Counted from the first letter of the stretch, positions 4,645-20,002 are shown. The stretch: 64,000 nt of DNA from an uncultured delta proteobacterium (GCA_963745025.1 CAVUWD010000011.1:256001-320000), one strand, 5' to 3'. The notes: generated by a model not told the origin, from the sequence alone. A program made the numbers and translations.

Positions 4645-4750
4645 GGTTCCTCCGGGCACCGGTCTCACCGGCCTGGTTTCGCGGCAGGGTCCGCGGCGTA
4701 GTCGGTCGCGCCGGGTCGCGGCTCATTCGAGGACCAGACGGTCGATCGGC

Positions 4751-6471
4751 CTATTTGGAATTGGGGAATGGCGTCACCTTGACCAACGTGCCCTCTGCTC
4801 CGGGGAAGAACACGCTTCCGTCGTAACCGGGCTGAACCGCGCTTCCCATGGTCATGAAGGGCACCTGATCGGAGCGTGCGAGCTCGCGACCCGTGGCGGC
4901 GTCGCGAAAGACGACCACGTCCGTCTGGTTGTCGCCGGGGATCTGGTCTACCGGGATGTCCGTGCCGACCCAGGTGCGGTTACCCTGCGGGCCGATGAGG
5001 GTGGCCCACTCGGTCGTCGTCTGAGTCTGCTTCCACACGGTCTTGATGCCCGAATCGGTGATCCTGAACGCCGCGACCTTGCGAGCCAGCGTCTCCACTC
5101 CGTAGAAGAGTCCGTTCTGCGGATCGACCTCGAGCGACATGCCGGCCCAGCTGATCGCCGGCGCGAACGCCTTGGCGAGCTCCGGCGGGATCGGATCGTT
5201 GAGATACGGCTGCAGGAAGAATTGACTTCGTGGCATCGTTCTGGTTGATCGCGAACACCGTAAGCGCCCCGGTAGCAGGAATGGAGTTCGTCGCGCCGAC
5301 GATCCAGTCATTCATGACGATCAACGAGCCGCCAGTCTGCTGATTGTCATAGGGAACGGCTGTGGGCGTCCAGTTGGTATCGAGCGAGAAGTGTCCGTGG
5401 TCCACGGAGTAGCGCACCGCGTTCGAGAGGTTCTCCAGCAGGTAAACGTAGTCGACGCCGTGGTACCGAGTGATCGTCGGCCGGGCGGAGCCGCGTGCCG
5501 GCAGAATGATGGTCTCGATGAACTGCATCGTTTCCGGGTCGACCGAGATCAGGTTGGACTGCGGAACGTTTCGGGCGTCTGGGGCAGTTGAGGAGCGCCG
5601 ACGGTCCGTTGAGCGTGCACCCGGCCACTCGGTACAGCGATTTCACCACGATCGTCCCGTCCGGGAGCGCGTTGATGCCGTTGTACGAGGTGTTGACCGC
5701 GTCATCGCGTCAGGGACTGGTCATAGGTCGGCCGGCGTGCTCGGGTAGTTGCAGCGCATGTAGACCGCGGTCGGCAGCACGAGCGTGTCGACGACCTTCC
5801 CGTCGGCCGGATCGACCTTGAAGATCCGGTAGCCGGACACCACGTAGATGTATGCCGTCGTTCTCGATCGCCATGGCGCCGGGGTAGTCCCATTCGCCGG
5901 CTTGCTGCGGCTGGCAGACCGGCGGGGCGCCGCAGCCTTGCTCGTATGTGCAAACCTGCTGCGTGCCGCACTCCTGCTCCGTGTTACGCAGTTGCGTGTA
6001 CCAGACCGGCTTCAGCGTCGTCGGGTCGACCTTCGCGACGAACGGGCCGATCGAGTTCTCGACGTCGCCGTAGCTGCCGCCCTGGATGAAGGCGTTCTTG
6101 TGGTCGAGGTAAGACATGTTGTAGCCGGACGGGTACGCGCCGTCGTCCGAGAAGACGAGGTCCACACGGTTCTTCCCGTTGAACGAGCCGCCGAACTTCG
6201 CCATCGAGAACACGTGCGAGCGGCCGGAGTCGTAGTGCTCGAACGCCTGCAGCGATGGGTACCACGGCGAGTTGGAGCTAGGAGGGATGTTGCCGGGCGA
6301 AGAATTCGTGGAGTTCGGCGGAGCGCCGAAAGCGACGCTCGCTAGCACCCCCGCGGCCGCGACGACAGCCAACGAAGTGCAGACGTGGAGATGGCCGCGG
6401 ATCCGAGCGAGCAGCGGATATCGCGGATGCATCGGGTCGGTGGCCGCTTCTAGATGGTCTTTGAGATCCAT
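4751..6471 (-). CDS. Secreted beta-rich (propeller-like) hypothetical protein, split by about 4 frameshifts
   Basis: ORF pieces 5710..6663, 5347..5649, 4980..5528 and 4751..5311 join into one coherent protein; signal-like segment and beta-strand-rich motifs. Confidence 0.65.
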
Positions 6472-7160
6472 TCCGCTTCCTTTCCCTTTTGCGACACACG
6501 CGCTGGCTCTTGCGAAACCAGCACACGACCATAGCGGGGCGCTGGAGAACGCCCACCAGCGCCGGGATCGTAACATGCTCGGGCGGACCGAGACATTCCT
6601 CCCCGTCTCTACGCCCTTTGGCTGGATTCGCTGATCTTCGCCGCAAGAACCTGCGACCCCCATTTTGACGCCCTTACTGAGAAAACTTGGAGAGAAGCGA
6701 TGCAGCCAGGAATCGACTACATCGTGTCGTTCTACTGATTTTTCTCGCCGTTCTCACTTCTCACCCTCCGCCGGCGCCGAGCGCCGCTTCAGGTACGTCT
6801 CGAGGTCTTCCACCGGCCGCGTGAAGCGATGGTCGATACCTCCATCGGTCGTCGCACGAATTTCATCACGCTCGTGCGGCGCCGTCGATACCAGGTGGGA
6901 CTGATTATCGCTGTGTGAGCCCGTCGAATACTCCGGGCGATGCCAGGAAGCGCTCTCGGCTTGGGCGGGGGAAGTGTCCATGGAGAGGCGCGCTCGCCCG
7001 GGGGCTCTCGGATTGCGCCTACATCTGGCCGGAAGGCTTGGCCTAACTGACGCGAACAGCTTCTTCGTTTTCCACGAGCCCCTTGCGTGGCAGAATCACG
7101 CGAAGACCACAGGCACGCCGCTAGAGGTGTTACCGGTTCGACATCGAAAGCCGCGAGCGG

Positions 7161-7190
7161 CGGATAGGCGGATAGGCGGGACAAGCGGCC
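7161..7190 (-). mobile_element. Putative oriIS end of an IS91/ISCR-like rolling-circle element
   Basis: Minus strand reads GGCCGCTTGTCCCGCCTATCCG, resembling the GC..TTG.....CCTAT(C/A)C oriIS pattern, about 200 nt downstream of an ISCR-type transposase tail; 8-bp tandem duplication CGGATAGG. Confidence 0.45.
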
Positions 7191-7384
7191 TGGTTGACGT
7201 AATCGCTCCATATCCGACGCCTGCCGAACTCACGAGAAACCCGTTTTTACGGCACGCATAAGGAACCTGTCCACCAAAATCACGGTGACGGCGCGCCGGC
7301 GGCCACCCCGCCCCCTCCCGCGTGGCCCGCGAGGCAGAGGGCAAAGAACACTCCGCCCTGGCCTGAGCTTCGCTTGGCTGACTC

Positions 7385-7590
7385 TCAACCGGCGCCGAAG
7401 TCGAAGAACCCCGCCGTCTCCGGAGGCGGCCGCGCGGCCGCAGGCCGCGGGCACTCGGTAGCGATACCGAGGTGAGAGAGGATCTTCCTGATCACCGCCG
7501 GATCCTCGATGGTGGCGAGTAGACGCAGCCGCCCGCCGCACTCGGGGCAGGAAAGAACGTCGATCTCCGCCGTGGCATGCATCATGCGTC
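7385..7590 (-). pseudogene. C-terminal remnant of an ISCR/IS91-type HUH transposase
   Basis: IDVLSCPECGGRLRLLATIEDPAVIRKILSHLGI is the characteristic tail; the catalytic HUH/Y region is absent. Confidence 0.75.
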
Positions 7591-7743
7591 GATCGAGGTG
7601 GGGTCGAGCTCGGCGCAAAAAAAGAAAGGGCAGGAGCGGCAGCGAGCCGGAGGCACTGGAGCCTCGGGGCTGCTGCCGCTGAAGGGCGGGAACAACGCGT
7701 AGGGATGGACTACGGGGGATGAAGAGAAAACTGCCGATGCTAC

Positions 7744-8320
7744 TCACGCGGGCAGCGCGATCTCCCGGGACCGCTCGAGCCTGCTGATCGTCTTGCTTCG
7801 CCGCCGATCCGACACGCGGGCGTAGACGAGGCTCGACTCGATGTTTCGATGACCGAGGTGGTCCTGAACGAAGTCGATCGGCTCGCCTGCGTCGAGAAGG
7901 TGGGTCGCGCAGCTGTGCCTGAGACAATGCACGTGCCTCCGATTCGGCGGGAGATCGGCGGCGGTGGCGTAGCGGGTGAAGAGGGCCTGTATCCAGCGCT
8001 TCGAGAGCCGGCCCTGTCTGACCGACGAAGAGCGCCGCATTGTCATCGGTCCGGGTACGGAGGTATCGCCGGAGAATCGCCACGAGACGCCGAAAGAGCG
8101 GCTTCTCTCCAGAGTAGCCGTTCTTCACACGCCAGACGCGGATCGTGCGGCGTTCGAAGTCGAGGTCCTCTCGCTGAAGCAGGCAAGCCTCGGAGACTCT
8201 GAGGCCGTAGAGGTAGATCGTCGTGAAGAGCGCTTTATCTCGAGGGTTCCTGATGACCGAGAAGAACGCTCGGACCTGGTCTTGGCGGAGGTACCTCGGG
8301 AGGTTCCACTTCACGATCAT
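7744..8320 (-). CDS. Small tyrosine recombinase (about 190 aa, catalytic domain only, FimB/FimE-sized) with one frameshift near 8010
   Basis: GGAGG RBS; YGLRVSE, RVKNG, HCLRHS, LGHRNIESSLVY give the complete R-K-H-R-H-Y set across two frames. Confidence 0.88.
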
Positions 8321-8329
8321 GAACCGCCT

Positions 8330-8798
8330 CCCTTCTTCGATAGAAGGAGGCCCTGCGGTCGGGAGTCTCCGCGGTGGCTGGAGCGCCCCCTGCGGTCCCG
8401 TAAGCGCCGGCGTCTCCTTCGGCGGCAGGAAGCTGCGCAGCACGAGTGTCTGCGGAAGGGCCGTGCGCGGCGGCGCGGGCGGCAATGACTTCGGCTTTTC
8501 TGGCAGGCGCTGCGGCGGCAGCGGCTGGAGCTCGGCGTCCGGGATCTCCTCGAGGTCGGCGTCGCAGCGCGTCGTCCTCAAGATCCGCCCCGCCTCGTCG
8601 TCGATCTTCATCTTCTGGCAGACGTAGATCCAGGTATCGACCAGGTCGACCTGAGCCCAGTAGCGGTCGGCCACCTGGTAGAGCTCGTTCGAGACGATCT
8701 GGACGACGAGATCCCCGACTGCGAACCGGGGCGGCTCAGCACGAGCCACGCCATTCCGCGACGACCCGTCCCGTGGGATCGTCGATCCGATAGGACAT
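8330..8798 (-). CDS. Hypothetical protein with an SH3/KOW-like start (RFAVGDLVVQ) and Pro-rich tail; frameshifted, 3' end uncertain
   Basis: AGGAGG RBS before the ATG at 8798; protein-like sequence continues in the 7385..9181 frame. Confidence 0.5.
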
Positions 8799-8820
8799 AG
8801 GAACCTCCTGTCGTTTTTCT

Positions 8821-10073
8821 CTAAGAGCCTCATCGGCATCACGACGAACTTCAGGCTCTCGTCCGCGGACTCGATGACCATCGGCGACACGTCGTCCTCG
8901 AGCTGGATGACGACCCGCTCCTCCTTGATGAAGCGGAGCGCGTCGAGCAGGTAGTTCGCGTTCAGGCCGATCGAGACCTCGCCGGAGGCCCCGAAGCACG
9001 GCAGCGCCCGGGTGAACTCGCCGAGGTCGGGATGCTGCTTGGAGAGCGTCAGCTTGTCGTCCTTCACCTCGAGCTTCACGCCCTTGGCTTTGTCGGTCGA
9101 GAACGGCAGCGAGGAGCTTAGCGCCTCCATGAAGGCTCTACGGTCGACCACGATGTGGTGCTTGCGCTTCTTGGGGATCACCTGGTCGTAGTCGGGGAAC
9201 GTGCCCTCGACGTAGCGCGACGTGAGCTCGTAGTTGGCGATCCGGAAGGAGCAGCCGTTCTCGTGGAAGTGGCCGACGATCGGCGCTCTTGGTCGCCGCG
9301 GCGATGTCGTCGACGAGCTCGACGACCTTCCTCGGGATCAGGAAGTCGCCTTCGATGGTCGCTCCCGGGATCCTCATCACATGAAGCCGGTGCCCATCGG
9401 TCGCCACCGCCAGGTTCTTGCAGAAGCGAAGGTAGACGCCGCTCATGTTGATCCGCGTCTCGTCGACACTGACTGCGGGCAGCACCGGCTCGAGGCTCGG
9501 GAGCTCGGCGATCTTGGCCGGGCCCTTCATCCGGTCCTTGAAGCCTGACAGCTCCGGGAACTCCTTCGCGTCGTGGCCGATGACGACCGCGTCGTCGATG
9601 ACGACGTTGAAGGGAGCCTTCTCGTGGTTGGCGCTCCGGATCGCGACTCCCGGGGACTGTCCGCGCTTTACGCAGTCATACAGGAGCTTCGCGGGAATCG
9701 ACGCGGCCAGGGGCTTCACCTCCGGGATGAAGACCCGGAGCGCGATGTCGAGGTCCGTGGCGAGCAGCACGCCGTTGTCGAAAAGGACGTCCGCGAGAAT
9801 CGCGATCGTGTTCTGTTTCGCCGCGACGCGGGCTAGGAACTTGAGCGCCAGGGCGAGCGGCTTCCGCGGGATCTCGCCGGCGGCGAGCGCGGGAGGAGCG
9901 GCCCTTTCCGCCTTGGCGGGCACGCTGCGCTTCGGCTTGACGAGCGGCGACGGGCCGAGACGTGCGCCGCTGACGGCTGGTGCCGGCGTCTCGGTGACCG
10001 TCGCCGGCGGCAGAGAAGGCTCTGCGGTTGCCACCGCGGACTCGCCGCGGGTGGCGGGTAGGTTGTCGGACAT
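8821..10073 (-). CDS. dnaN: DNA polymerase III beta-subunit (sliding clamp) homologue in the mobile island; frameshifted near 9285 and at the stop
   Basis: LATDLDIAL, EFPEL, DETRINMSGVY, VATDGHRL, EGTFPDYDQVIP, IGLNANYLLDAL, VVMPMRL; no dnaA/recF/gyrB neighbours. Confidence 0.9.
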
Positions 10074-10097
10074 GGGCACTCCCTTGATTTTGAGGTT

Positions 10098-10126
10098 GAG
10101 TGCCGAGTGGAGAGCACTCGGCACTG
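10098..10126. repeat. Perfect 11-bp-stem hairpin upstream of the clamp gene
   Basis: AGTGCCGAGTG-GAGAG-CACTCGGCACT. Confidence 0.7.
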
Positions 10127-10130
10127 AGAC

Positions 10131-10718
10131 TTACTTCTTCAGGCGCCAGGCGTTCTGCTGGAACCAGGCCTTGACCGCCTCCGCGCCCATGATCGACACG
10201 GGCTGCACCTCGGCGATCCATCCGCCCTCGCCGCAGCCGAAGCACTGTTCGGTGAAGTGCTCGATGTCCTCCGCGCCCTGTTCCCTGGCGAAGCGCTCGA
10301 GGGCCTCTTCGGCTTCCTTCTCGGTGGGATGGGCCTCGCAGAACGCCCACTCGAAGTGCGTCACGCGCTCGTAGACGTGCACGTGCGGATTGCTCAACCC
10401 CGCGCACGAGTCGCACTCGTCACCATCGTCATCGAACTCCGTGTGGTAGTGGATCGCCGTGGCGAGGAACCACTCCGCGCGCTCGCCGCCGGCGGGGAGG
10501 ACGGGCTCCGCCCGCGGCGCCGGCGGATTCGGCGCATCGGCGAATCGCGGCTGGACCGGCGCGGTCGGCGTCTTCCAGGGCGCTGGGCCGAACCCCCCGC
10601 GACGGAATCCGACCTCGCCGTCTCGACGCGGCTCGTATGACACCGGCGAGCCGCCTTCGCGACGCATGTGTCCCGGTACGAGCGAGCCCATGCGCGGAGC
10701 GGGTAGGTTGTGCTTCAT
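10131..10718 (-). CDS. Hypothetical protein, acidic, with possible Zn-binding residues
   Basis: AGGAG RBS; CDSC...HVH...CEAH...CFGC. Confidence 0.65.
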   Translation of the reverse strand: MKHNLPAPRMGSLVPGHMRREGGSPVSYEPRRDGEVGFRRGGFGPAPWKTPTAPVQPRFADAPNPPAPRAEPVLPAGGERAEWFLATAIHYHTEFDDDGDECDSCAGLSNPHVHVYERVTHFEWAFCEAHPTEKEAEEALERFAREQGAEDIEHFTEQCFGCGEGGWIAEVQPVSIMGAEAVKAWFQQNAWRLKK

Positions 10719-10731
10719 CGTGTTCTCCTTC

Positions 10732-11175
10732 TCACCACGCGCCCGTGTCGACGAAGCTCCAGTGCCGGTCGGCGCCGAGGATCACGTGGTCGAGCACGCG
10801 GATGCCGAGGATCTCGCCGGCCTCGCGAAGGCGCCTTGTGAGCTCGGTGTCCTCCGCGGAAGGCTCGGGTTCGCCACTCGGGTGGTTATGCGCGAGAATC
10901 ACGGCCGCGGCGGCGGCGTGAACCGCTGGCCGGAAGACCTCGCGCGGATGACAGAGCGATGCCGTCAGCGTCCCGACCGAGATCACGCGGTAGCCGCCCG
11001 GCTTCACGCGATGCTTCGCGTTCAGAAGCAGCGTGACGAAGACCTCCTGGTCGAGGCCTCCGATCCGCGGCCGGAGGGCCGCGGCGACCTCGTTCGAGCC
11101 GCGAAGCACGCCGATGATCTCCGGCGGCGGCTCGCCGTCACGAATGATCTCGACGCGCGGGAGTGTCGGTTTCAT
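10732..11175 (-). CDS. radC: RadC-like JAB/MPN domain protein (short, mobile-element type)
   Basis: QEVFVTLLLNAKH, HPREVF, AHNHPSGEPEPSAED, GIRVLDHVILG. Confidence 0.93.
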   Translation of the reverse strand: MKPTLPRVEIIRDGEPPPEIIGVLRGSNEVAAALRPRIGGLDQEVFVTLLLNAKHRVKPGGYRVISVGTLTASLCHPREVFRPAVHAAAAAVILAHNHPSGEPEPSAEDTELTRRLREAGEILGIRVLDHVILGADRHWSFVDTGAW

Positions 11176-11438
11176 GTTCCTCCTAGACCGGCCGTAGATG
11201 CGGCCGGAACTTGATGACGTGCGCGCCCCGCCGGCGTGGGACCGTCTTGAAGATCCAGGCAACGAGGGCCCGGACGAGCATCCAGAGGATCTCGCTCGCG
11301 AGCGGCCGCAGCCACCTCGAACCGCAGGTTCCACGCCGCATCCACAGCACGCGCGAACGCGCCCCCTGGTTCCCAGCCCCGCTTCATCCCGCCCCACACC
11401 TTCTGCATGTTCTCCCCGAAGTAGTTCCGCCCCATCAT
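11172..11438 (-). CDS. Small hypothetical protein
   Basis: Translationally coupled on both sides (ATGA overlap with radC); may contain compensating frameshifts. Confidence 0.5.
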   Translation of the reverse strand: MMGRNYFGENMQKVWGGMKRGWEPGGAFARAVDAAWNLRFEVAAAARERDPLDARPGPRCLDLQDGPTPAGRARHQVPAASTAGLGGT

Positions 11439-12195
11439 CACGCCTCCCTCCGGATCGCCTCGCGGATCTCCTCGAGGTCTCTCCCGTCGTCGCGCTCCTC
11501 GCGGAGCATCTTCGCCTTGAGCTCCGCAGCGCAGTGATTGGTGCCGCTCTGGTCGGCCACCATGAAGCGGCAGTTCTCGCACGGGGTGCGATAGAGAAGT
11601 TTGCACGCCCAGAACTGCGTCGCCCGGTCGAGCACGGTGCGGTTGTCGTACACGGTGTACGGACCGACGCGGCCGAGCTTGCGCATGTCCGCTCCCGAGA
11701 CGTCCTCTCCGCCGCGCGACTCGGTCGCATCGGATGCAGACCGAGCCGTCGTCCACCACGGCGGGTCGTCTGCCATGCGCGACGTCGGCCGGAAGGCACC
11801 GAAGCCGGCGGTAGACCCATTCCCGGGTCCACCCTGGTAATAGCCGCCGCCTCCTCGCCGGAAGCCGGACTCTTTCTTCCCCTTCGTCCAGAGATCCGGC
11901 GCCTGGTCGTAGGCCTGCTGGTTCGCGATCCCCTTCGTGAACAGGTGATAGAAGCCGCGGTAGACCACGACCGTGAAGAGCGCCCGGAAGAAGTGCGCGA
12001 GTCCCCACGCTGCCTCGTCGCGGACCCACTGGCCGAAGCCCTTCCCTGCCGTGGCCGTCTCCGCGTTGATCTTGGGCTCGGCCGTTGCGACGTCTGGCCG
12101 CGTTGGCCCGGCGAGCTCGAGTAGCCGCCTCCGGACCTGGTCGGCTCGATCACGATGACCGGCGGCGCGCTGCCGTATGGATCCTTGAAGCTCAT
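11438..12195 (-). CDS. Hypothetical protein with an amphipathic segment, Gly-rich linker and C-terminal Cys cluster; one frameshift
   Basis: Start MSFKDPYG joins the frame of 11438..12490; WACKLLYRTPCENC...NHC. Confidence 0.6.
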
Positions 12196-12516
12196 GTGCG
12201 TGCTCCTCCCTTCTCGAGCACCTCGACGATGTGGTTGAGCTCACCGTTGAAGATCGATTCGACGAGCCACCCCTTGCCGACCGCCTGCTCGAACCAACGC
12301 CGCAGCAACATCGACATGGTGATGACTGCGGCCCACTTCGCGCTGAGCAGCGCCTCTCGCAGCCACCAGTTGCGGCGCTTCTTCGCGCGCCACCAGCTTC
12401 GGATTCGGCGCCCCTGTGCACGCACGAATGCCGGGAATCGCTCGCAACAGCGCGACGCCGCCTCTCCAGTTCCGTTCGATCGGGCGCCACACGCGCTCGA
12501 TCAGTCTTTGCAGCAT
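12192..12516 (-). CDS. Small basic Trp/Arg-rich hypothetical protein; one frameshift
   Basis: AGGAGGTG RBS; ATGA overlap with the downstream gene. Confidence 0.55.
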
Positions 12517-12527
12517 CCTCACCTCCT

Positions 12528-12980
12528 TCATCTCTTCAGGAGCTCTGCCTTCACGAAGACGAACGGGTCTCGGATCTCCCACGCCGGCGCCTCGTCGTAT
12601 CCGGGTAGGCACCTGATCGCGGTCACCGTCAGCGACTCACAGAACGCGGCCGCCTCGGTTTGCTCCCAGTCGTCGGTCTCGCAGGACTGGTACACGTAAC
12701 AACGGATCGCTTTGAGGACGATCACCGGATCGGGCGATCCCGGCAGCATCTTGAACCTGTATTCCGGCACCGCCTCCTCCTCGCCGTAGCGGTAGTTGAC
12801 GCTCCGGCGGTTCTCGGCGATGAGCATTCGCCCGACGTCGTCCTGGGTAAGCTCGTTAAGCTCTCGCTCCTTCCTCGGATCGCCCCAGTACCAGCGAAGC
12901 GGCCCATAGGGACGCACCAGGATGAGCCCCGCGGTCACGAGCGCGTTGATGTGCGTCGCTCCGACCATGAAGGCGCTCAT
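12528..12980 (-). CDS. Conserved phage/plasmid hypothetical protein
   Basis: MSAF...HINALV, GRMLIAENRRSVNYRY, LKAIRCYVYQSCE...W...LPGYDEAPAW is a pattern I recall from phage and conjugative-element early regions; function unknown. Confidence 0.75.
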   Translation of the reverse strand: MSAFMVGATHINALVTAGLILVRPYGPLRWYWGDPRKERELNELTQDDVGRMLIAENRRSVNYRYGEEEAVPEYRFKMLPGSPDPVIVLKAIRCYVYQSCETDDWEQTEAAAFCESLTVTAIRCLPGYDEAPAWEIRDPFVFVKAELLKR

Positions 12981-13489
12981 AACGGGAACATCCCGAGGTC
13001 CGTGATGACGTCGAGCTTCGGATCGAATCCCTTGAGGCACTGGTTTCCGTGGTCGATCACGAACCGCGTGGCGCGTTGGCCGAGGATCTCGATCACCACG
13101 GGTGGATTCCGTGGGTGGTTCCAGAGACCCACCTCGATGAGATCGTCGTCCTGCTTGCCCGCGTAGACGGGCTCGAGCCCCCAGGTGGCCAGCGCCTCCA
13201 TGATCTGGCGCAGCAGATGGATCACGTGCGCGACGTAGGGCTTCCACTTCCGCTCGGGAAGCCGCTGGCCATTCTCGTCGCGGCTGAACCGCTCGTAGTC
13301 GAAGCTGATACGGACCTTCTGGATCTTGCCGTCAGGCCCGCGCGTCCAGAGCTTCGGATCGACGAGCATGACGACCTCCACGCGCCCTCGAGGCAGCAGC
13401 GTCTCGCCGGGTGGTGGATGAACGTGCGACACCTCCGAGAGCGGGATCTTCACCGTCCCGTTCCCGTTCGTGCCCTGCATGGTTTGCAT
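12977..13489 (-). CDS. Hypothetical protein
   Basis: AAGGAG RBS; 4-nt overlap with the next gene; 170 aa. Confidence 0.7.
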   Translation of the reverse strand: MQTMQGTNGNGTVKIPLSEVSHVHPPPGETLLPRGRVEVVMLVDPKLWTRGPDGKIQKVRISFDYERFSRDENGQRLPERKWKPYVAHVIHLLRQIMEALATWGLEPVYAGKQDDDLIEVGLWNHPRNPPVVIEILGQRATRFVIDHGNQCLKGFDPKLDVITDLGMFPL

Positions 13490-13517
13490 GCGGTTGGTCT
13501 CCTTCGAATTCGGAAAG

Positions 13518-13593
13518 TACGAAAAGAAAAGGCCCCGCGGTCCGGCACCCTTTCGAGTGCCGGACTTTGGAGCCTTCGTAGGTAGCTACGAAG
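13518..13593 (-). promoter_or_regulatory. Structured intergenic module e (hairpin + T-tract + outer stem, upstream of an RBS)
   Basis: Minus strand: TACGAAG-GCTCC-AAA-GTCCGGCACTC-GAAA-GGGTGCCGGAC-CGC-GGGGCC-TTTTCTT-TTCGTA; competing hairpin CTTCGTAG/CTACGAAG. Confidence 0.7.
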
Positions 13594-13609
13594 CTAGATC
13601 GCTAGATTG

Positions 13610-13777
13610 CTAGCTTCCCGCCTTGCGGAATCCCGCGTTCTTCTCCTCGGCGCTCGCGCCGCCGGCGAGGATGTCGCCCATGCCGTCGCCCGCGAGACCG
13701 ACCGCGGCGACCGCGGTGAACAACCCGACGCCGATTCCGACGATGCCGATGATGAACTTGCCGATCGCTTTGAGCAT
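13610..13777 (-). CDS. 55-aa single-pass membrane microprotein (not in the ORF track)
   Basis: AAGGAG RBS; MLKAIGKFIIGIVGIGVGLFTAVAAVGLAGDGMGDILAGGASAEEKNAGFRKAGS*. Confidence 0.7.
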   Translation of the reverse strand: MLKAIGKFIIGIVGIGVGLFTAVAAVGLAGDGMGDILAGGASAEEKNAGFRKAGS

Positions 13778-13801
13778 TGCGCTCTCCTTCCCTTTGTTCC
13801 T

Positions 13802-13849
13802 GCGCCAGAAACAGCTGAGCCCTCGGGGCTGGCGCTCACCCGAGGGCTC
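13802..13849 (-). promoter_or_regulatory. Structured intergenic module d
   Basis: Stem GAGCCCTCGGG/CCCGAGGGCTC followed by AGCTGTTTCTGGCGC; loop GCGCCAG is complementary to the downstream CTGGCGC. Confidence 0.6.
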
Positions 13850-13871
13850 TTGCCGCGTGCCATGACAGCGG

Positions 13872-14021
13872 TTACGCCGCTTTGGCGGTGGTGTCGGTGC
13901 TCGGGGCCGCGCTGCCGCCGCGGACGCCCTCGCCGATCGCGTCCGCGCCGAACGCCGCGAAGCAGGCGCCGAACGCGATGAACGCGAGTCCGAAGCACAC
14001 CTTCGAGATCTTCAGAAACAT
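13872..14021 (-). CDS. 49-aa single-pass membrane microprotein
   Basis: AGGAGG RBS; MFLKISKVCFGLAFIAFGACFAAFGADAIGEGVRGGSAAPSTDTTAKAA*. Confidence 0.7.
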   Translation of the reverse strand: MFLKISKVCFGLAFIAFGACFAAFGADAIGEGVRGGSAAPSTDTTAKAA

Positions 14022-14043
14022 GGGAACCTCCTGGTTGTCGTCT

Positions 14044-14119
14044 GGCCGAAAACAAAAACGCCCCGCGGAACGATTCCCCCGGGGCGTCACAGACAGAGCT
14101 CGGCCGTCCTGTCTTACAC
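14044..14119 (-). promoter_or_regulatory. Structured intergenic module c
   Basis: GTGTAAGACAGGAC-GGCCGAG-CTCTGTCTGTG-ACGCCCCG...CGGGGCGT-TTTTGTT-TTCGGCC, then AGGAGG. Confidence 0.75.
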
Positions 14120-14136
14120 TGAGTGTGGCGAACTTT

Positions 14137-14394
14137 TTACGAAGCGTTCAGGTCCCGTTGCCGCGCGCGCCGGCGGCTGGTGATCCATCTGCCCCAGAGC
14201 ACGCTGTCGATGCGCTTCTTCAGCTTCCGCACCGCCTTGTCGAGGCTCTCTCCGGGCTCCGAGACGTAGGTGACCTGGCAGTTGTCAGCGAGCGACTTCG
14301 ACACTTCCCAGCGTCCGTCGATGAGCTTTCCCGAGATGAGACCGTGTCGGGTGAGCTCAGGCCCCGTGAGCTCCTTCACGCCCCCCTCATCCAT
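14137..14394 (-). CDS. Small basic hypothetical protein
   Basis: 85 aa, overlapping the stop of the upstream gene; contains ESLDKAVRKLKKRI. Confidence 0.55.
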   Translation of the reverse strand: MDEGGVKELTGPELTRHGLISGKLIDGRWEVSKSLADNCQVTYVSEPGESLDKAVRKLKKRIDSVLWGRWITSRRRARQRDLNAS

Positions 14395-15001
14395 TGACCG
14401 CCGGGTCGACGGTCGTGGACGTCGCCGTGTCCCCGCCTCCGATCGGGCCGTTCGGCTGACCGCTCGGCTGCGCCACGACCGCGGTCTCGTCGCCGCCGGC
14501 GACCGCCCGGACGATCAGGTAGACCACCCCGATCCCCGCGATCGCCGCGCCCACGCCCCAGACCTTCGGGTTCTTGACGAACTGCCAGGTCTTGTTCGCC
14601 GCGCGCCGCAGCCGGCCGGGCTCCTCGCTGCCGTTGATGTTGATCTGCTCCTGAGTCTGTCCCATGGTCCCGTTCTCCTCTTCTTCTTTGAGCGCCGGCT
14701 CCGTTGCCGGCGGCTCGGTTGGTGGTGGATCGATCTCCACCGGGCCGTCGTAGAGTCGTTCGAACTCTGCGGCGATCTGCCTCTCCACTTGCCTCAGAGC
14801 CTTCACGCAGTACCGGGTCTTCACCGGGTGCGGCACGCGCCACTGACAGCGCTCGACGTAGCGCCGTGCGCGTGCGAGCTCCGCGAGCATCGTGAGCATC
14901 GTGTCGTAGAGCTCCGCGTCCTCCGGCCTCAGCTTCAAACGAATCCGGATCTCGTGGGCTTCCGACTCGACGACTTCCTCAGCCGTTGCTCGATCGTTCA
15001 T
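14387..15001 (-). CDS. Hypothetical protein; the C-terminal half (MGQTQEQ..., single TM) has its own RBS and may be a separate gene
   Basis: AGGAGG RBS; internal GAGGAG-N9-ATG at about 14665; TM segment VWGVGAAIAGIGVVYLIV. Confidence 0.6.
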   Translation of the reverse strand: MNDRATAEEVVESEAHEIRIRLKLRPEDAELYDTMLTMLAELARARRYVERCQWRVPHPVKTRYCVKALRQVERQIAAEFERLYDGPVEIDPPPTEPPATEPALKEEEENGTMGQTQEQININGSEEPGRLRRAANKTWQFVKNPKVWGVGAAIAGIGVVYLIVRAVAGGDETAVVAQPSGQPNGPIGGGDTATSTTVDPAVNG

Positions 15002-15022
15002 TCCCTGCCTCCTCTGGTCAGG

Positions 15023-15086
15023 GCCGAGAAAACAAAAAGCCCCGGAAGGACCTGTTCCTTCTCGGGGCCGCAGGGCAGGTCTCGGC
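15023..15086 (-). promoter_or_regulatory. Structured intergenic module b
   Basis: GCCGAGA-CCTGCCCTGCG-GCCCCGAGAAGGA-ACAGG-TCCTTCCGGGGC-TTTTTGTTT-TCTCGGC, then AGGAGG. Confidence 0.75.
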
Positions 15087-15158
15087 GATGCCCGCCTTGG
15101 TATCGTTCAGCCAGACCGTCGAGTTCTCCTCGTCACCTCCCTTCTGTGCTCTGGCGCC

Positions 15159-15416
15159 TCACCACGACCCAGCGTCGACGAAGCTGTAGTGCTTGCCGTC
15201 ACCGAGGATCACGTGGTCGAGAACGCGGATGCCGACGACTTCGCCGGCTTCCCGCAGGCGCTTCGTGAGCTCGATGTCCTCTGCGCTCGGCGCCGGGTCG
15301 GCGCCTTCAAAGAGGGGCATCAGAAGCCTCGCCGCGTCCGTGGACGTCCGGAGGACGGTCTCCTCGGGCTCGTCTGCTCCGGACTCGCGGACGAGCTCGA
15401 GCCTGTACCTGCGCAT
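15159..15416 (-). CDS. radC: RadC/JAB paralogue with an in-frame internal deletion removing the E and HxH catalytic segment
   Basis: ...LMPLFEGAD joined directly to PAPSAEDIELTKRLREAGEVVGIRVLDHVILG; HNHPSG missing; strong AAGGAGGTG RBS. Confidence 0.8.
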   Translation of the reverse strand: MRRYRLELVRESGADEPEETVLRTSTDAARLLMPLFEGADPAPSAEDIELTKRLREAGEVVGIRVLDHVILGDGKHYSFVDAGSW

Positions 15417-15447
15417 GTGGTCACCTCCTTCCCGCAGGTGGTCTCCT

Positions 15448-15530
15448 CGGCCGAAACGAAAACGCCCCGGTCGAGCAATGGCGCTCGCCGGGGCGCTGGA
15501 CAGACTATGGCCGCAGCTATCCTCTACACA
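15448..15530 (-). promoter_or_regulatory. Structured intergenic module a (first in the island)
   Basis: GTGTAGAGGATAGCTG-CGGCC-ATAGTCTGTCCAG-CGCCCCGG...CCGGGGCG-TTTTCGTTTC-GGCCG, then AAGGAGGTG. Confidence 0.75.
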
Positions 15531-15710
15531 TCATCATGACGCAGAGCGCGGATAAAGGTCACCATGAAAACGCTATTCACTCATTGTCCATCAACGACGC
15601 ACTGCGAATTGTTGACAAATGTGCCCCTGTGGCATTCAGAGGTCACAGTTGCGGTTCTTGCCACTCCGTGTCCAGGATCGAGTCCCGGCCGAGCACGTGA
15701 AAAGCGGCCA

Positions 15711-15914
15711 ATGGTGAGCGAATCAGGCATCCAAGAGGATTTCGTCGTCTCGTGCCCTTACTGCGGAGAGGACGTCGAGATCCACGTCGAGGTGGACGTC
15801 GCGGGCACCCTCGTGCAGGACTGCGAGGTGTGTTGCAACCCGTGGCTCCTGCGCGTCACGGTCGACAGCGGAAATCGGTCCGTCAGCGTGGCGCGGGCCG
15901 ACGGTTCGGAGTGA
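15711..15914 (+). CDS. CPXCG-motif cysteine-rich protein
   Basis: SCPYCGE...VQDCEVCCNPW. Confidence 0.88.
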   Translation: MVSESGIQEDFVVSCPYCGEDVEIHVEVDVAGTLVQDCEVCCNPWLLRVTVDSGNRSVSVARADGSE

Positions 15915-15993
15915 GAAAGAGCCGCATCGTCCCGATCTTCGATGCCTTCCGAGTAGATTGCGCCTCCTGGCGCCTCGCGCTAGGACCCAGGAT

Positions 15994-16242
15994 ATGACTG
16001 ACACCCCGTTCGTCGTCCAGAAAGTCGAGTGGTACCAGTTTCGCCATCCTGCCGGGCATGCGTTTTTCGTCATGGTCGCGAGCCTTCCGAACGGTTTCTT
16101 CACCGCCGTGCCCTGCCACGTGACGATGCGGCTCGCCGACCACAGCGTGGTCGCGCTCGCTGCGACGCAGGAAGAGGCTTTGACACAGCTCCAGACGACC
16201 CTTGCCGGAAAGACCGCCGGCGAGCTCTTTCCGGCGACGTGA
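15994..16242 (+). CDS. Small hypothetical protein
   Basis: 82 aa with host-like codon usage. Confidence 0.6.
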   Translation: MTDTPFVVQKVEWYQFRHPAGHAFFVMVASLPNGFFTAVPCHVTMRLADHSVVALAATQEEALTQLQTTLAGKTAGELFPAT

Positions 16243-16378
16243 GCTCACCGAGCACGGCCGCCGAAGGCATAGCGCCCCTCGGAATTCGTCATCCGACACG
16301 CCAGCAACAAGAGGAGAGGCTGACTACGATAAGTGCCGGCAGGCCGTCCGTCTGGAAAATATTGGTTGAGAGCTGCGA

Positions 16379-17353
16379 ATGCGCCGCATAGTGTGCCGTG
16401 AGTTCGGGCCGCTCGAGAACCTTACCGTCGAGGAAGCCGACGAACCGGAGGTCTCCCCGGGCACTATCCTGGTCGACGTGGAAGCCGCCGGGGTGAACTT
16501 CGTCGACGCTTTGATCGTGCGGGGCGAGTACCAGATAAAGCCGCCGCTGCCGTTCGTCGCTGGCAGCGAGATCGCAGGCAGCGTACTCACCGTCGGCGAT
16601 GGGGTCACGGCGGTTCAGGTCGGCGACCGCATCTTTGGGATGACCGGCTCTGGCGGCTTCGCGGAACGTGTCGTGATCGGAGCCGCGCAGGCGTTTCGCG
16701 TCCCGTCGTTGATCGATGCCAAGCGCGCCGCCACCTTTATCCAGAGCTACTGCACCGCCCTTTTCGCGTTGCGCGAACGCGCCGGGCTGCGCCCTGGCGA
16801 GACGGTCCTGGTGCTCGGGGCGGCCGGCGGCGTCGGGCGCGCGGCCATCGACGTGGCGAAGGCCCTCGGGGCTCGGGTGATCGCGGCCGCGTCGAGCGAC
16901 GCACGTGTCGGCGCGTGCAAGACCGCCGGCGCCGACGAGACGATCGACTACTCGCGCGAGGATCTAAAGAGCCGCGTGAAGCAGCTCGGGGGCGTTGATG
17001 TGATCGTCGATCCAGTCGGCGGTGACCGCGCGGAGCCTGCCCTGCGCACGCTCGGCGTGGACGGGCGCTACCTCGTCATCGGTTTCGCCGCTGGCGCCAT
17101 ACCGCGCATTCCCCTCAACCTCGTTCTGCTGCGCAACCGCCGCGTCGTCGGCGTCGACTGGGGCGCATGGATGAAGAGCAATCCAGATGCCCAACGCCGC
17201 CTGATCGGCGAGCTGCTCGCACTGGTGGAGGCGGGCAGCCTGCACCCCCAGGAACCGGCAACCTACGCCTTGGAGGACGCGGCAACCGCCCTCGCCGATC
17301 TCCTCGCGAATCGCGTGGCAGGCAAAGCGGCGCTCGTTCCGCGGCGTCACTGA
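16379..17353 (+). CDS. NADPH:quinone oxidoreductase (MDR/Qor family)
   Basis: AAGVNFVD, VLGAAGGVG, GKAAL tail. Confidence 0.92.
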   Translation: MRRIVCREFGPLENLTVEEADEPEVSPGTILVDVEAAGVNFVDALIVRGEYQIKPPLPFVAGSEIAGSVLTVGDGVTAVQVGDRIFGMTGSGGFAERVVIGAAQAFRVPSLIDAKRAATFIQSYCTALFALRERAGLRPGETVLVLGAAGGVGRAAIDVAKALGARVIAAASSDARVGACKTAGADETIDYSREDLKSRVKQLGGVDVIVDPVGGDRAEPALRTLGVDGRYLVIGFAAGAIPRIPLNLVLLRNRRVVGVDWGAWMKSNPDAQRRLIGELLALVEAGSLHPQEPATYALEDAATALADLLANRVAGKAALVPRRH

Positions 17354-17569
17354 GCCCGACGGACGTATGGTGGGCCCAGATTCACAAAATCGCGAGAAGG
17401 TGAAGGTCGGAGGCGCCATCACTTCCAGAACCGGCGGGGACGACCTGCTCGGGTGCCAAACGCCGGCGGGGATCGACGAAGGTGTTCGCCGGCTCGCAGG
17501 ATCGCTGCGCACCACGGGATATAAAACGACGCACGGTCGATCGGTACGCGAATGAGGCAAAGACCGTGC

Positions 17570-18418
17570 TCACCGTCCGCCGTTCGCAAACCGTGCGAGC
17601 TCGTCGAGGCGCTTCCACATCGCGTCGCGGTCGGCGGCGGGCAGGCCGAAGATCACCCGCTCGATGCCCGCGCGCTCCCACGAGTCGACGGTTGCGCGCT
17701 CGGTAGGCGCCCAGAAGACCGTGATCGAGATCGAGCGCGGGTCGCGTCCGGCCCTTGTTGCGCGCTCGCGGAGATCCGCCGCTCCGGCGGTGATGTCTTC
17801 GCCGTTGATTCCCGGGATCGGCATCCAGCCGTCGCAATAGTCGACGACACGCTGGCGCCCCTTCGGCCCGTGAGCGCCGAGCAGGATCGGCGGATGCGGC
17901 TTTTGCACGGGCTTCGGCTCTGCCCAGATCGGATCGAAACGCACCATCTCGCCGTGGTACTCCGCCGCCTCCTTTGTCCAGATCTCCTTCATCGCCTCGA
18001 CCCGCTCGCGCACCAGCCGCCAGCGCGTCTTCGGGTTCGTGCCGTGGTTCTCCATCTCCTCGAGGTTCCAGCCGCCGCCGACGCCGAACAGGAGGCGCCC
18101 GCAGGAGAGGAAGTCGGCGGTCGCGACCTCTTTCGCCGTGCTGATCGGATCACGCTCGCAGACGAGGAGCACGCCCGTGCCGAGCTTCAGCTTCTTGGTG
18201 ACGGCTGCGGCTGCGTTCACGCAAGCGAAGGGGTCGAGCAGGTGCCAGTAATCGCGCGGCAGCTCGATGCCTTGCGGGTGCGGCGTGCGCCGCGACGCCG
18301 GGATGTGGCTGTGGTCGGGGAACCAGAGCGACTCAAAGCCGCGCTCCTCGACGGCCGGCGCGAGCTCGTCCGGTCGCACGGAGAAGTCCGTCTGAAGCGA
18401 CATCACGGCATACTTCAT
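17570..18418 (-). CDS. LLM-class F420-dependent oxidoreductase (Rv2161c-like)
   Basis: GFESLWFPDHSHIP, GVGGGWNLEEMENHG, PKPVQKPHPPILLG. Confidence 0.92.
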   Translation of the reverse strand: MKYAVMSLQTDFSVRPDELAPAVEERGFESLWFPDHSHIPASRRTPHPQGIELPRDYWHLLDPFACVNAAAAVTKKLKLGTGVLLVCERDPISTAKEVATADFLSCGRLLFGVGGGWNLEEMENHGTNPKTRWRLVRERVEAMKEIWTKEAAEYHGEMVRFDPIWAEPKPVQKPHPPILLGAHGPKGRQRVVDYCDGWMPIPGINGEDITAGAADLRERATRAGRDPRSISITVFWAPTERATVDSWERAGIERVIFGLPAADRDAMWKRLDELARFANGGR

Positions 18419-18488
18419 GGGCGGTCCTCCTTCACCGGTTAGCCTACTCCGAGTCGGCGCCGCATCGAAGTTCGGCGTGATCTCGGCG

Positions 18489-19745
18489 TCAGTCGCGTGT
18501 CCCTGGGCCCTGTGCGCCGGCCAATCCGACCGTCGGCGCGGACGAGGCCGCATCGAGGTGCGGCACGACGTTGGTCATGAACAGTTCGAGCTCGCGCAGC
18601 ACGGACTCCTTCGGCTGCTGCGCGAAGTGGTAGATCAGCGTGATGTATTCGCACGGCACCTCGTCGTAGAGGCGCTTCCATTCGTCGCGCACCTGATCGG
18701 GCGTACCGACGGAAAAAATACCGGATTCCTTGATGTTCTGCACGAAATCGGTGTTGGGATCGTTCGGGAACTGCGGGAAGAACGGACCGTAGAAGTTCTT
18801 GTAGATGTCGATGTCGTAGTCGCGGATCATCCGATCGCATTCGGCCATGCTGCTCGCGATGTGGGGCCAGCGCACGATGTTCTGCCGCTGTCCGAGCGTC
18901 ACGCGCTCGCCGTGCTTCGCCGACTCGTCGACATAGAGCTGCGCCTGCTTGCGGATCGAGTCGAACTTCGAAAAGTAGGTCGGGATGAAGCCGTTGCGGC
19001 CGCAATAACGCACCGAGTCGTCGCTCCTCGTGGTGGCGACGAAGATCGGCGGCCGGCGCTTCTTGTAGGTCGGCGGCACCACGCTGATGCGCCGCACGTT
19101 GCCGGCGGCGTCGATCTCGCCCGCTGCGCCGGCCTCGCTTGCGATGCGCGCCGCAGGGTATTTCTCCACGCCGGTGTCGAGCGGAAAGGGCGCCTGGTAG
19201 TAGTCGCCGTTGAGGACGACGGAATCCTCCTCCCAGCAGCGCAGCACCATCGCCACGCGCTCCTCGAAGATGTCGCGGTTCTTCAGGTCGTCGGCGCTGC
19301 CGTCGGAGACGGTGGCGACGGTGTGGGAGAACTGGCCGAGAATGTTGGTCCAGCGCGATTGGTAGCCCCGGGCGAAGCCGACGAAGTATTTTCCACGCGT
19401 GATGTGGTCGAGTATCGCGGTCTCCTCGGCGACGCGGATCGGGTCCTGCGTCGCCATGACGTAGCCGAGCGCGCCAACATGCATGTGCTTCACCTGGCCC
19501 GCCCACCAGGCATTGAGGATGCCGGGGTTGGGCCCGACCTCGTAGCCTTCCGAATGCAGGTGGTGCTCGATGGTCGAGGCGCCCCAGACGCCCAGCTCAT
19601 CGGCCGCCTTGATGATGTCGATCCAGTCGAACAGGACGCGCTGGTAGAGGTCGGCATCACGGCCAACCGGCCGCGCGCGCCGGCGGCCTTCCTCCCCGTC
19701 GGCGGGAAGCATCGGATAGAGCTGCAGGATGACCTTCGGCCGCAT
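18489..19745 (-). CDS. LLM-class flavin-dependent monooxygenase
   Basis: IEHHLHSEG, DPIRVAEETAILDH, GFARGYQ, GTPDQV. Confidence 0.9.
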   Translation of the reverse strand: MRPKVILQLYPMLPADGEEGRRRARPVGRDADLYQRVLFDWIDIIKAADELGVWGASTIEHHLHSEGYEVGPNPGILNAWWAGQVKHMHVGALGYVMATQDPIRVAEETAILDHITRGKYFVGFARGYQSRWTNILGQFSHTVATVSDGSADDLKNRDIFEERVAMVLRCWEEDSVVLNGDYYQAPFPLDTGVEKYPAARIASEAGAAGEIDAAGNVRRISVVPPTYKKRRPPIFVATTRSDDSVRYCGRNGFIPTYFSKFDSIRKQAQLYVDESAKHGERVTLGQRQNIVRWPHIASSMAECDRMIRDYDIDIYKNFYGPFFPQFPNDPNTDFVQNIKESGIFSVGTPDQVRDEWKRLYDEVPCEYITLIYHFAQQPKESVLRELELFMTNVVPHLDAASSAPTVGLAGAQGPGTRD

Positions 19746-19894
19746 CTTGAGCGTCCCTTCGTGTTCTCGATTGTCGTACTTGGCCCGCCTATAGGGCGAC
19801 AGCCAGCAGGCCTTGCAGACGATGTCTCGCAATATCTCGTACGGGGTTCCAGACTCAATCGATCAACGGCATCGCCTGATGAATTCGCGCCGCC

Positions 19895-20002
19895 TTATTC
19901 GCTCACCTCGTCGGCGCCCGCGAGCAGCATCGGCGGCACGTCGAGGCCGAGCGCCTTCGCGGACTTGAGGTTGACCACCAAGGTCAACTGCATCACCGGC
20001 AG
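19895..20002 (-). pseudogene. C-terminal relic of an ABC-transporter substrate-binding protein
   Basis: [35 protein letters not shown]. Confidence 0.75.

Follow-up and report, generated by a model that had tools for sequence, protein, structure and literature searches.

Five small intergenic modules, here called a to e, lie between positions 13,518 and 15,530 of a 64,000-nt stretch of DNA from an uncultured delta proteobacterium (GCA_963745025.1, CAVUWD010000011.1:256001-320000), the whole of which is referred to below as the window. Modules a, b and c form one sequence family, and we give about an even chance to the view that they represent a new, narrow leader or intercistronic element of integrase-bearing islands, ~85 nt long, that acts at the RNA level as an attenuator between a promoter and its gene. 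The elements probably throttle the genes of these islands. The initial annotation, made from the window sequence by itself, held that terminator-like hairpins ahead of genes need an explanation, which is upheld here, and among the mechanisms that it listed the suggestion of attenuation or processing, read as sense-strand RNA, fits best.

The five GC-rich hairpins are all present on the minus strand where they were first described, and each module is followed at 13–40 nt by an AGGAGG-like ribosome-binding site (Shine-Dalgarno sequence, SD) and a start codon. Compared with 200 shuffled sequences each, their folds have z-scores of -3.24 (a, no shuffle as good), -2.62 (b, 4 as good), -1.86 (c, 13), -2.23 (d, 5) and -5.21 (e, none). 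A consensus terminator scan of positions 8000–20000 returned 10 sites, including a, b and c, against 7.1 ± 2.5 in shuffled sequences. The modules had been described as sharing a fold more than a sequence, with outer stems that differ from one to the next. For a, b and c this is incorrect: they are homologous over ~85 nt (nhmmer E-values of 2e-14 to 1.6e-11; covariance model (CM) scores of 54.7–70 bits) and have a single outer-stem motif, GGCCGAG / YUCGGCC. The string noticed in both a and c (GTGTA..GA...CGGCC...TCTGTC...CGCCCCG) is real and forms part of this homology, and modules d and e fall outside the family by both methods. What stands of the shared fold is that, loosely, in four of the five a box after the T-tract matches an upstream loop or arm; among a, b and c the likeness is one of sequence. 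A similarity of fold only became a sequence family once further copies had been found.

Read along the gene strand, members of the family show the order -35-like hexamer, 16–19 nt, CATAAT/CATACT-like hexamer, a first hairpin (P1) with the loop word GGCCGAR, a second hairpin (P2), a T-rich tract of 9–12 nt, a box YTCGGCC (YUCGGCC in RNA), a gap of 4–36 nt, the SD and the start codon. In all 20 copies with enough contig downstream, an SD and a start codon of the same orientation follow, and five copies precede radC genes or their remnants. Between the box and the SD of membrane-peptide genes there is, in addition, a third hairpin, GTCGCC...GGCGAC with a variable middle (L004 7948-7985, L173 ~4440-4475, L002 9062-9085 and metagenome copies).

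The copies were collected as follows. A scan of this genome (G000; 5.6 Mb, 20 contigs) for a strong hairpin followed by an interrupted T-tract gave 29 strong sites, seven of which are a, b, c, e, C2, C8 and C15; canonical terminators of this high-GC genome cluster in mobile DNA, where these 7 of the 29 lie. A profile search added a full copy, C6, and a truncated one, C13. The covariance model R1, built from an imperfect MAFFT alignment, matched exactly seven full copies in the genome and neither d nor e. Together with three copies from the sole genome of the same genus (the congener, G001) and 14 from metagenomes, 24 full copies were analysed. Eleven of the 14 metagenome copies had been selected by a pattern that requires GGCCGA and TCGGCC, and the remaining 13 copies are counted separately where relevant. 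Sequences set aside were L129 (the same as L122 over the printed stretch), L052 (same place as L010), L140 (21 bits, without P1), L154 and L153:675 (P2 only), L122:225 and C13 (truncated or without T-tract) and L002:9329 (hairpin only). The truncated relatives at C13:~77700-77780 in G000 and at L122 225-300 have a common upstream stretch, AAAGCGCGCAAATTTCGGAAGCCGAGCA, and retain P1 plus the 5' arm or the whole of P2; T-tract and box are absent. Rearranged tandems occur at L154 354-470 and L153 675-790, where a P1 of a different subtype, either alone or together with its own P2, comes directly after an a-type P2.

The family is real yet narrow. Among 60 relatives, copies were found in G001 alone; a weak match in G014 was discarded as it lies inside a transporter gene. 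The canonical word pattern, run against one genome for each of 185,579 species, had 104 matches, of which the model confirmed one (L052), identical in sequence and score to the G001 copy, and the single pattern match in a viral collection was not confirmed by the CM. A metagenome collection yielded 51 stretches, and 14 of these loci were matched by the model at E-values up to 0.1; the 14 full metagenome copies come from 12 distinct soil or sediment contigs, three of which carry two full copies each, 400–600 bp apart, each copy preceding an SD and a gene. A comparison with Rfam, which the initial annotation had proposed, gave no match in the 64-kb window at the gathering score of any family of Rfam 15, and up to an E-value of 10 only chance-level or generic hairpins in 12800-16000 and around the C6 copy. 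The best of the sub-threshold matches was ctRNA_pGA1 (27.6 bits, gathering score 45), followed by sX13 and NsiR1.

To judge from its sequence, P2 with the tract behind it is a canonical intrinsic terminator on the gene strand. The P2 stems range from -16.7 to -28.3 kcal/mol in all 24 copies and a T-rich tract follows P2 in every one of them, although in L160a it is broken to GTTGTCGTT. G.U pairs in P2 number 18 in the sense orientation versus six in the antisense, and the T-tract occurs on the gene strand only; P2 thus looks like a standard terminator of that strand. In module a, P2 (15461..15497, minus strand) is an intrinsic-terminator-like GC stem of -27.6 kcal/mol, followed by the U-tract TTTTCGTTT and the 3' box TCGGCC(G) (15448..15462, minus strand). 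The terminator-like P2 hairpins of module b (15039..15069, minus strand) and module c (14057..14088, minus strand) were detected by terminator scan, fold and genome scan alike, and are followed on the same strand by TTTTTGTTTTC and the box TCTCGGCC in b (15022..15038) and by TTTTTGTTTT and the box TTCGGCC in c (14044..14058). A GC stem-loop with a U-rich tract behind it is found in a, b, c and e; the tract of d is poor.

Promoter-like sequences lie ahead of many of these terminators. At one fixed spacing to the loop word, 7 of the 24 copies reached a sigma-70 hexamer score of at least 8 out of 12, versus 12.7% of shuffled sequences, and in 12 of the 24 a CAYAMT-type hexamer ends 16–21 nt ahead of the loop motif. 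The promoter-like element of module a (15533..15562, minus strand; 8/12 on the sigma-70 scale) combines the -35 hexamer GTGACC (15562-15557), an 18-nt spacer and the -10 hexamer CATGAT (15538-15533), as far from the loop motif as are the CATAAT/CATACT hexamers in C8, C15, C6, G1b, G1C6 and L143. A weaker one was recognized by eye ahead of module c (TGAACG, 17 nt, CACACT; 14122..14150, minus strand). The scorer places it in another register (CTGAAC, 18 nt, CACACT, 6/12), and the congener orthologue has CATACT there (7/12). Module b of the window is without a promoter-like element; in G001 its orthologue, with which the congener island opens, has TGAACA, 17 nt and CATACT. According to the initial annotation, the hairpins would be plain terminators if each gene had an ordinary promoter of its own. 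Promoter-like elements occur in about half of the copies, but upstream of the hairpin; the order in those copies is promoter, terminator, gene, and the hairpins are therefore not plain end-of-gene terminators. No run recorded as RNA was found to contain the stretch. Contigs from four runs labelled as transcriptomic and flagged 'probably DNA' cover parts of a, b, c and related modules; they also include promoter DNA and are uninformative on transcripts.

The upstream halves of the outer stems that the initial annotation proposed for a, b and c are present as described, but they lie in the loop of a 5' hairpin that had been overlooked, P1, which competes with the outer stem. In the minimum-energy fold of module a, P1 (15498..15522, minus strand; -9.1 kcal/mol) pairs GGATAGCTG with TAG-CTGTCC around the loop CGGCCA. 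The arms are GGCGGG and CCTGCC in module b (15074..15096, minus strand; -11.9 kcal/mol), with the loop motif CGCCGAGA, and AGACAG(G) and C-CTGTCT in the fold of module c (14091..14114, minus strand), with the loop motif GGCCGAG at 14105-14099. Relatives of the module b hairpin have GACGGG/CCCGTC (L126b) and GCACAC/GTGTGC (the congener orthologue). Overall, P1 forms in 23 of the 24 copies from unrelated stem sequences, which apart from these two types include AGAYAG/CTGTCT, ACGCAGAC/GTCTGCGT and GGAcGCGCG/CGCGCTCC, around the conserved loop GGCCGAR. The analyses of P1, of loop and box and of the switch between folds used anchor-based scripts. The mean P1 fold was -8.6 kcal/mol with cognate arms versus -5.6 kcal/mol with swapped arms, and none of 2000 permutations reached the observed value, a count that is not a probability, as the rows are related. 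Covariation of the P1 arms is supported.

The loop of P1 is in turn complementary to the box. The pairings first reported for the family were found again at their positions: CGGCC/GGCCG in a (15513-15448), GCCGAGA/TCTCGGC in b (15086-15023) and GGCCGAG/TTCGGCC in c (14105-14044). Taken singly they are weak, in that the 5-nt match of a was reached by 32% of shuffles, the six Watson-Crick pairs of c by 9% and the 7-nt match of b by 1.8%. In module a those 5 nt are all that pairs with its own loop; in c the pairing spans 7 nt with one G.U, and the congener loop GGTCGAG can still pair through a U.G. The minimum-energy folds of a to e contain the outer stem in b alone, with its 7-nt complement, and another outer pairing in d. 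Across the family, loop and box are complementary over 7–10 nt in 21 of the 24 copies (10 of the 13 that were not pattern-selected). Several changes preserve pairing: GGTCGAG (U.G), TCGGCT (G.U) and GAA, which always occurs with TTC (6/6), while GAG stands opposite CTC (6) or TTC (9); of the orthologues C6 and G1C6, one has GAG/CTC and the other GAA/TTC. These changes in loop and box are suggestive, not proof.

A simpler explanation is that the modules are ordinary insulating terminators between add-on units, with no switch, and that P1, loop and box have been kept only through recent duplication and because T-tract and box serve as a recombination linker. The presence of the family in one of 60 relatives and the single true match among 104 in 185,579 species genomes agree with it, as do modules d and e, which do the same job without P1 or box, the lack of convincing covariation in the outer stem and the fact that the T-tract or box marks the limits of homology between islands. 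Against this, promoter-like elements lie upstream of a terminator that would cut off their own gene, and covariation of the P1 arms is supported. Moreover, the stems have been rewritten nearly completely while the 6–7-nt words of loop and box are unchanged, a sign of selection and not of recency. We hold this explanation to be rather unlikely.

Folding of the copies indicates when the box could act. In the terminated RNA, which ends in the U-tract, P1 and P2 coexist in 22 of the 24 copies; with the box included, 16 of the 24 nested minimum-energy folds have the outer stem in place of P1. The energies of the two states are within a few kcal/mol of each other, and in nested folding the states are mutually exclusive. 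The box is located downstream of the U-tract, and the outer stem therefore cannot decide termination at P2. The antitermination switch considered in the initial annotation does not stand in its classical form, because the 3' half of the outer stem comes after the U-tract and leaves the P2 stem untouched. Two other candidates were tried and dropped. The platform of a classical attenuator or riboswitch (RAT, T-box, trp) is incompatible with P1 and P2 being adjacent, not overlapping, and with a P2 stem that is not shared; a translational switch through the box was rejected on the unchanged predicted accessibility of the SD in 20 copies when the box was blocked.

If the elements are attenuators, P1 would begin near +1, P2 and the U-tract would sit between promoter and gene, and most transcripts, whether from the element's own promoter or from the upstream gene, would end at P2. 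What remains of those begun at the element's own promoter would be a stable P1–P2 RNA of ~65–75 nt. The box would be made only by polymerases that read through; it could then zip onto the loop region of P1, open P1 and enclose the terminator in the outer stem. Such pairing would come too late for termination at P2 and would therefore act on the read-through mRNA or serve as the target of a short RNA: it might affect the stability of the read-through mRNA, its processing or access to a standby site, or else the box might be the target of the short RNAs. The stems drift, but nearly every copy keeps the loop and box sequences, and therefore a common trans-acting reader is likely, which might be a protein or the short RNAs themselves. 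The units would then form a co-regulated set, their read-through being set by some factor.

Several observations weigh against this scheme. Positions 8000–20000 contained no promoter in a stricter promoter scan, and we infer that the promoters are used, that P2 terminates and that a short RNA arises. In the 11 copies fished by pattern the conservation of the words is built in, and in a family limited to one genus and metagenomes conservation may partly reflect recent common descent. Loop and box pair weakly or not at all in a, C2 and G1b. The initial annotation had looked to covariation of the outer stem, and that stem turned out to be conserved, not covarying: in the model-fitted alignment 84.5% of the helix 1 cells are paired with essentially no double changes, the one double-changed pair being an alignment cell of a degenerate copy, and in the realignment A4 some rows are out of register at the 3' end, where helix pair counts understate pairing. 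The association of GAA with TTC (0/6 versus 6/15, ~0.09 by hand, with related rows) is not significant by itself. The folds of the copies revealed no helix in competition with the P2 stem, and the predicted exposure of the SD is 0.68 with the box free versus 0.69 with it blocked (20 copies; four skipped for a short contig or no SD). Finally, P1 is more stable on one strand in 12 copies and on the other in 12, with no bias, and by itself says neither RNA nor DNA.

A more ambitious form of the attenuator reading, which we regard as unlikely, takes the units for an island regulon run by its own leader RNAs: an RNA of ~70 nt with the seed GGCCGAR would read the box of any read-through mRNA in cis or in trans, all copies and islands of a cell would sense one another's dosage, and the T-tract and box would be the joint at which parts are swapped. 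The logic might resemble c4/CI-like immunity, but would start from intrinsic terminators and be repeated gene by gene. The c4 RNA of phages P1 and P7 and the CI RNA of P4 are small RNAs encoded in a leader, with loops complementary to sites downstream in the same transcript; they are made by processing, and their targets overlap a ribosome-binding site or cause termination. The modules would likewise encode a leader RNA, show complementarity of a loop to a downstream site (7–10 nt, 21 of 24 copies) and occur, as those RNAs do, in temperate or integrative elements. They differ in that the RNA would arise by intrinsic termination, that the target stands 4–36 nt upstream of the SD and that the Rfam c4 family has no match.

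It is quite unlikely, in our estimation, that the modules are simply a self-targeting small-RNA circuit of the c4 or CI type, with the P1–P2 RNA as its product, a loop seed that would pair in trans with the box in read-through mRNAs from each unit and each island copy of the cell, and dosage or immunity control as its purpose. Promoter, two hairpins and terminator do make up a self-contained unit of ~70 nt whose seed is in a hairpin loop and whose target is just downstream in the same leader. The sequences of seed and target are constant while the stems drift, as if the copies cross-reacted, and the best sub-threshold resemblances in Rfam are to small antisense or small-RNA genes. However, the target does not cover the SD, and blocking it leaves the predicted exposure as it was; the seed is just 7–10 nt long and contains the palindrome GGCC, and neither c4 nor any other Rfam family matched. 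Sites of RNase III-type processing or stabilization, as between the early genes of phage T7, are highly improbable. The modules stand directly ahead of successive ribosome-binding sites in one transcription direction, and the outer stem and P2 could be the lower and the upper helix of such a site. In the T7 sites an internal loop separates a lower from an upper stem, but it is far smaller there than the 9–14 nt per side seen here; moreover, the U-tract would go unexplained and P1 competes with the lower stem.

Exchange of genes between modules, which the initial annotation had suggested looking for, is seen in related contigs. L143 and L126a are 90% identical upstream, 91% in P1 and 90% in P2, with 34% identity after the box; the former precedes a membrane peptide and the latter a full-length radC. 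C8 and C15 are 80% identical in P1, 93% in P2 and 28% thereafter. Conversely, the same gene can follow different 5' halves, as in the pairs window b and G001 b, and C6 and G1C6, where BLAST homology starts at the T-tract or box. Such shuffling would fit exchange within the sole conserved 15–17 nt; two of the exchange cases might be merely fast compensatory drift of stems.

These patterns also bear on the proposal that the modules are folded recombination sites making each gene a cassette for the island's recombinase. It could be framed in terms of folded or duplex DNA sites of the attC kind, with GGCCGAG and CTCGGCC as recombinase boxes and a crossover in the T-tract or box, and we judge it very unlikely. 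The layout is indeed attC-like, in that conserved, complementary outer boxes at gene boundaries enclose an unpaired bubble and an inner hairpin that varies; one set of promoter, P1, P2 and box is joined to different genes (L143/L126a; C8/C15), one gene to different 5' halves with breaks at the T-tract or box, and P1 has no strand bias. The absence of an attC consensus reported earlier was, however, borne out: RYYYAAC and GTTRRRY 40–130 nt apart had no match on either strand of 13400-15700, so that the R''/R' consensus is absent, and there appears to be no IntI-type arrangement. Islands with related modules carry either a tyrosine recombinase (the window, C6) or a large serine recombinase (C8), co-directional and at the far end, which undercuts a site for one island recombinase. 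The T-tract and promoter are alien to attC, T-tract and sense-biased G.U pairs of P2 would have no role in a recombination site, and homologous exchange in 15–17 nt or drift of stems explains the breakpoints equally well.

The initial annotation also named hairpin promoters in single-stranded DNA (Frpo/ssi-like), which would serve a transferred strand as promoters or priming signals. In favour of this, the genes, all encoded on the same strand, resemble leading-region cargo (RadC, small uncharacterized proteins). In the published description, Frpo is a fold that rebuilds the -35 and -10 elements in a duplex stem (PMC11541004). In the modules the stems are GC-only and the -35/-10-like hexamers fall in unpaired DNA upstream of P1, and no relaxase or transfer genes were found among the open reading frames (ORFs) scanned; this possibility is extremely improbable.

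Modules d and e appear from their sequences to be simpler terminator-like hairpins, placed like a–c; as noted, nhmmer and the CM of the a/b/c family match neither. In the fold of d (13802..13849, minus strand) the hairpin GAGCCCTCGGG..CCCGAGGGCTC (13849-13817) is followed by a poor T-tract and the tail CTGGCGC (13808-13802), which, as reported, is complementary to the 7-nt loop GCGCCAG (13835-13829). This match was reached by 0.6% of shuffles, and the congener keeps six of the seven pairs, with one double change (G-C to U-A), one wobble and one pair lost; the loop–tail pairing of d may be real. The fold of module e (13518..13593, minus strand) comprises a small hairpin, CTTCGTAG-CTAC-CTACGAAG (13593-13574), and a large one (13576-13529), followed by the T-tract TTTTCTTTT and TTCGTA (13523-13518). 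The complementarity TACGAA/TTCGTA (13580-13518) is there as described, but in the minimum-energy fold TACGAA pairs locally in the small hairpin, ~4% of shuffles contain a 6-nt tail match by chance, and the congener orthologue has an uncompensated G>C (TTCCTA for TTCGTA). The outer stem proposed for e is probably not real.

The island itself is a single minus-strand gene array that fills the window from 15,562 to ~7,385. Its order is an internally deleted radC (15159-15416), a 204-aa ORF, an 85-aa ORF, 49-aa and 55-aa membrane peptides and the core (7385..13489, minus strand), which was examined with Pfam, PHROGs and NCBIfam. Modules a–e precede the first five units, and the core is without modules. 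It consists of ORFs of 170, 239 and 350 aa, RadC (the C-terminal part of ORF 10732-12195), a 195-aa ORF, a DnaN-like clamp and a tyrosine integrase, all on the minus strand. The N-terminal and central domains of the clamp are encoded in 9138-10124, and its C-terminal domain opens the ORF 7385-9181 (minus strand), in which the integrase follows in a frame fused to that last domain and has a partial match to Pfam Phage_integrase; the arrangement in 7385-10124 suggests a frameshift or fusion. Near-identical pieces of this clamp/integrase region are present on contig C17. A paralogous island is found on the C6 contig and an orthologous one in G001, from which unit a is wholly missing.

Seven of the 10 ORFs scanned near the modules matched no family in Pfam, PHROGs or NCBIfam, and the same databases revealed no candidate antiterminator or RNA-binding protein among the island ORFs scanned. 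The 85-aa ORF ends in an arginine-rich stretch that, read by eye, does not stay in frame in the congener. The radC remnant after module a (15159..15416, minus strand; 85 aa) has its SD, AGGAGG, at 15429-15424 and a Pfam RadC match on its C-terminal part only. Its first ~40 residues (MRRYRLELVRES...) and last ~45 are the two ends of the 145-aa RadC of L126, without the JAB core, and that full-length RadC stands behind a homologous module. No convincing direct repeat that could mark att sites flanks the island in 4500-17500, and neither positions 1-22000 of the window nor six related loci contain tRNA or tmRNA genes.

The membrane peptides form a family of 53–55 aa with one transmembrane helix, an invariant GDG in an AGDG-like motif and, in most, RKAS at the end; members are encoded at 13610-13777 (minus strand) of the window, L004 7988-8152 and L173 4479-4643 and in L159, L167 and L132, and in several islands they are the first gene behind a module. 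In size and shape they may recall type I toxins or holin-like peptides. A profile of six sequences found, in 401 genomes of the phylum, only the two copies of its own genome and one spurious match, which sits inside a 728-aa frame. The 49-aa membrane ORF after module c (13872-14021) is out of frame in G001 (L172 ~6620-6770) with the same start, and may be decaying or not a gene.

Beyond the integrase end of the island the window encodes a transposase of an insertion sequence, with rve/DDE and helix-turn-helix domains (1044-2045, minus strand), and a DUF1214/DUF1254 protein (2383-4668, minus strand). The C8 island has the best-scoring module at its start and, at its end, a 617-aa large serine recombinase (L002 10523-12376, minus strand) that adjoins another C-terminal remnant of RadC (L002 10072-10320). 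At L172 5300-5400 in G001, just upstream of the promoter of the congener island, at least five copies of GTCTGCA within ~90 nt could be iteron-like or arm-type binding sites; the 3' arm of P1 is frequently GTCTGTC. The same chromosomal sequence, 87% identical between L004 13346-14841 and L173 2804-4306, borders two islands: in this genome it adjoins the C6 island at the integrase end, and in the congener it is inverted and adjoins the related island at the promoter end. The edge of the latter island is just upstream of the -35 hexamer.

If the attenuator reading is true, a compact and portable control unit of ~85 nt, made of promoter, hairpin, terminator and matching box, stands before single accessory genes, radC and small membrane peptides among them, and is swapped between genes in the islands of an uncultured lineage. 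Mutations in loop and box could be compensated by each other, which makes for a simple testable system.

Several known arrangements share features with the modules. In phage lambda, N with nut and Q bring about processive antitermination, and boxB is a promoter-proximal hairpin with a conserved loop. Mobile-element operons with several intrinsic terminators within or ahead of them recall this mode of control and that by conAn of Gram-positive conjugative elements; a conserved-loop hairpin close to the promoter and upstream of the terminator is a further point of likeness to lambda. The modules differ in having one P1 per terminator in place of one loading site, and a 3' box without counterpart. 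Processive antitermination would explain terminators ahead of genes, yet the island ORFs scanned include no factor for it. The radC RNA motif (RF01754) likewise comprises structured 5' elements of radC-type and other mobile-element genes, and is reported from Proteobacteria (PMC2864571, PMC5587801). It had no match at gathering in the 64 kb and was not listed up to an E-value of 10 in 12800-16000 or around the C6 copy. Phage morons consist of promoter, gene and terminator and, like the sequences at mosaic boundaries, resemble the units described here as small add-on genes with signals of their own that are exchanged at a short conserved intergenic sequence; in the modules, the terminator comes between promoter and gene.

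The published design closest in shape is the zipper attenuator of pLS20 (cATT), in which an upstream stem-loop is complementary to a downstream terminator and an extended central stem blocks the terminator (PMC13401043). Both are leaders of mobile-element operons with an intrinsic terminator between promoter and first gene, and in each a strong central stem-loop is preceded by a weak one and followed by a segment that can pair with that weak one. The downstream partner in cATT, however, belongs to a separate terminator and zipping prevents termination, whereas in the modules the central hairpin itself bears the U-tract and the partner lies beyond it, so that zipping cannot prevent termination there. 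Thus, the central stem of the modules is extended as in a zipper (16 of 24 folds), but its partner is not in a terminator. The two were compared by description, come from different host lineages and differ in scale, the modules being ~85 nt long and repeated before several genes and the pLS20 leader 456 nt. If the attenuator reading holds, the modules would represent a new leader design, in which long-range pairing becomes available only after the terminator has been passed, a feature that the models compared here do not explain.

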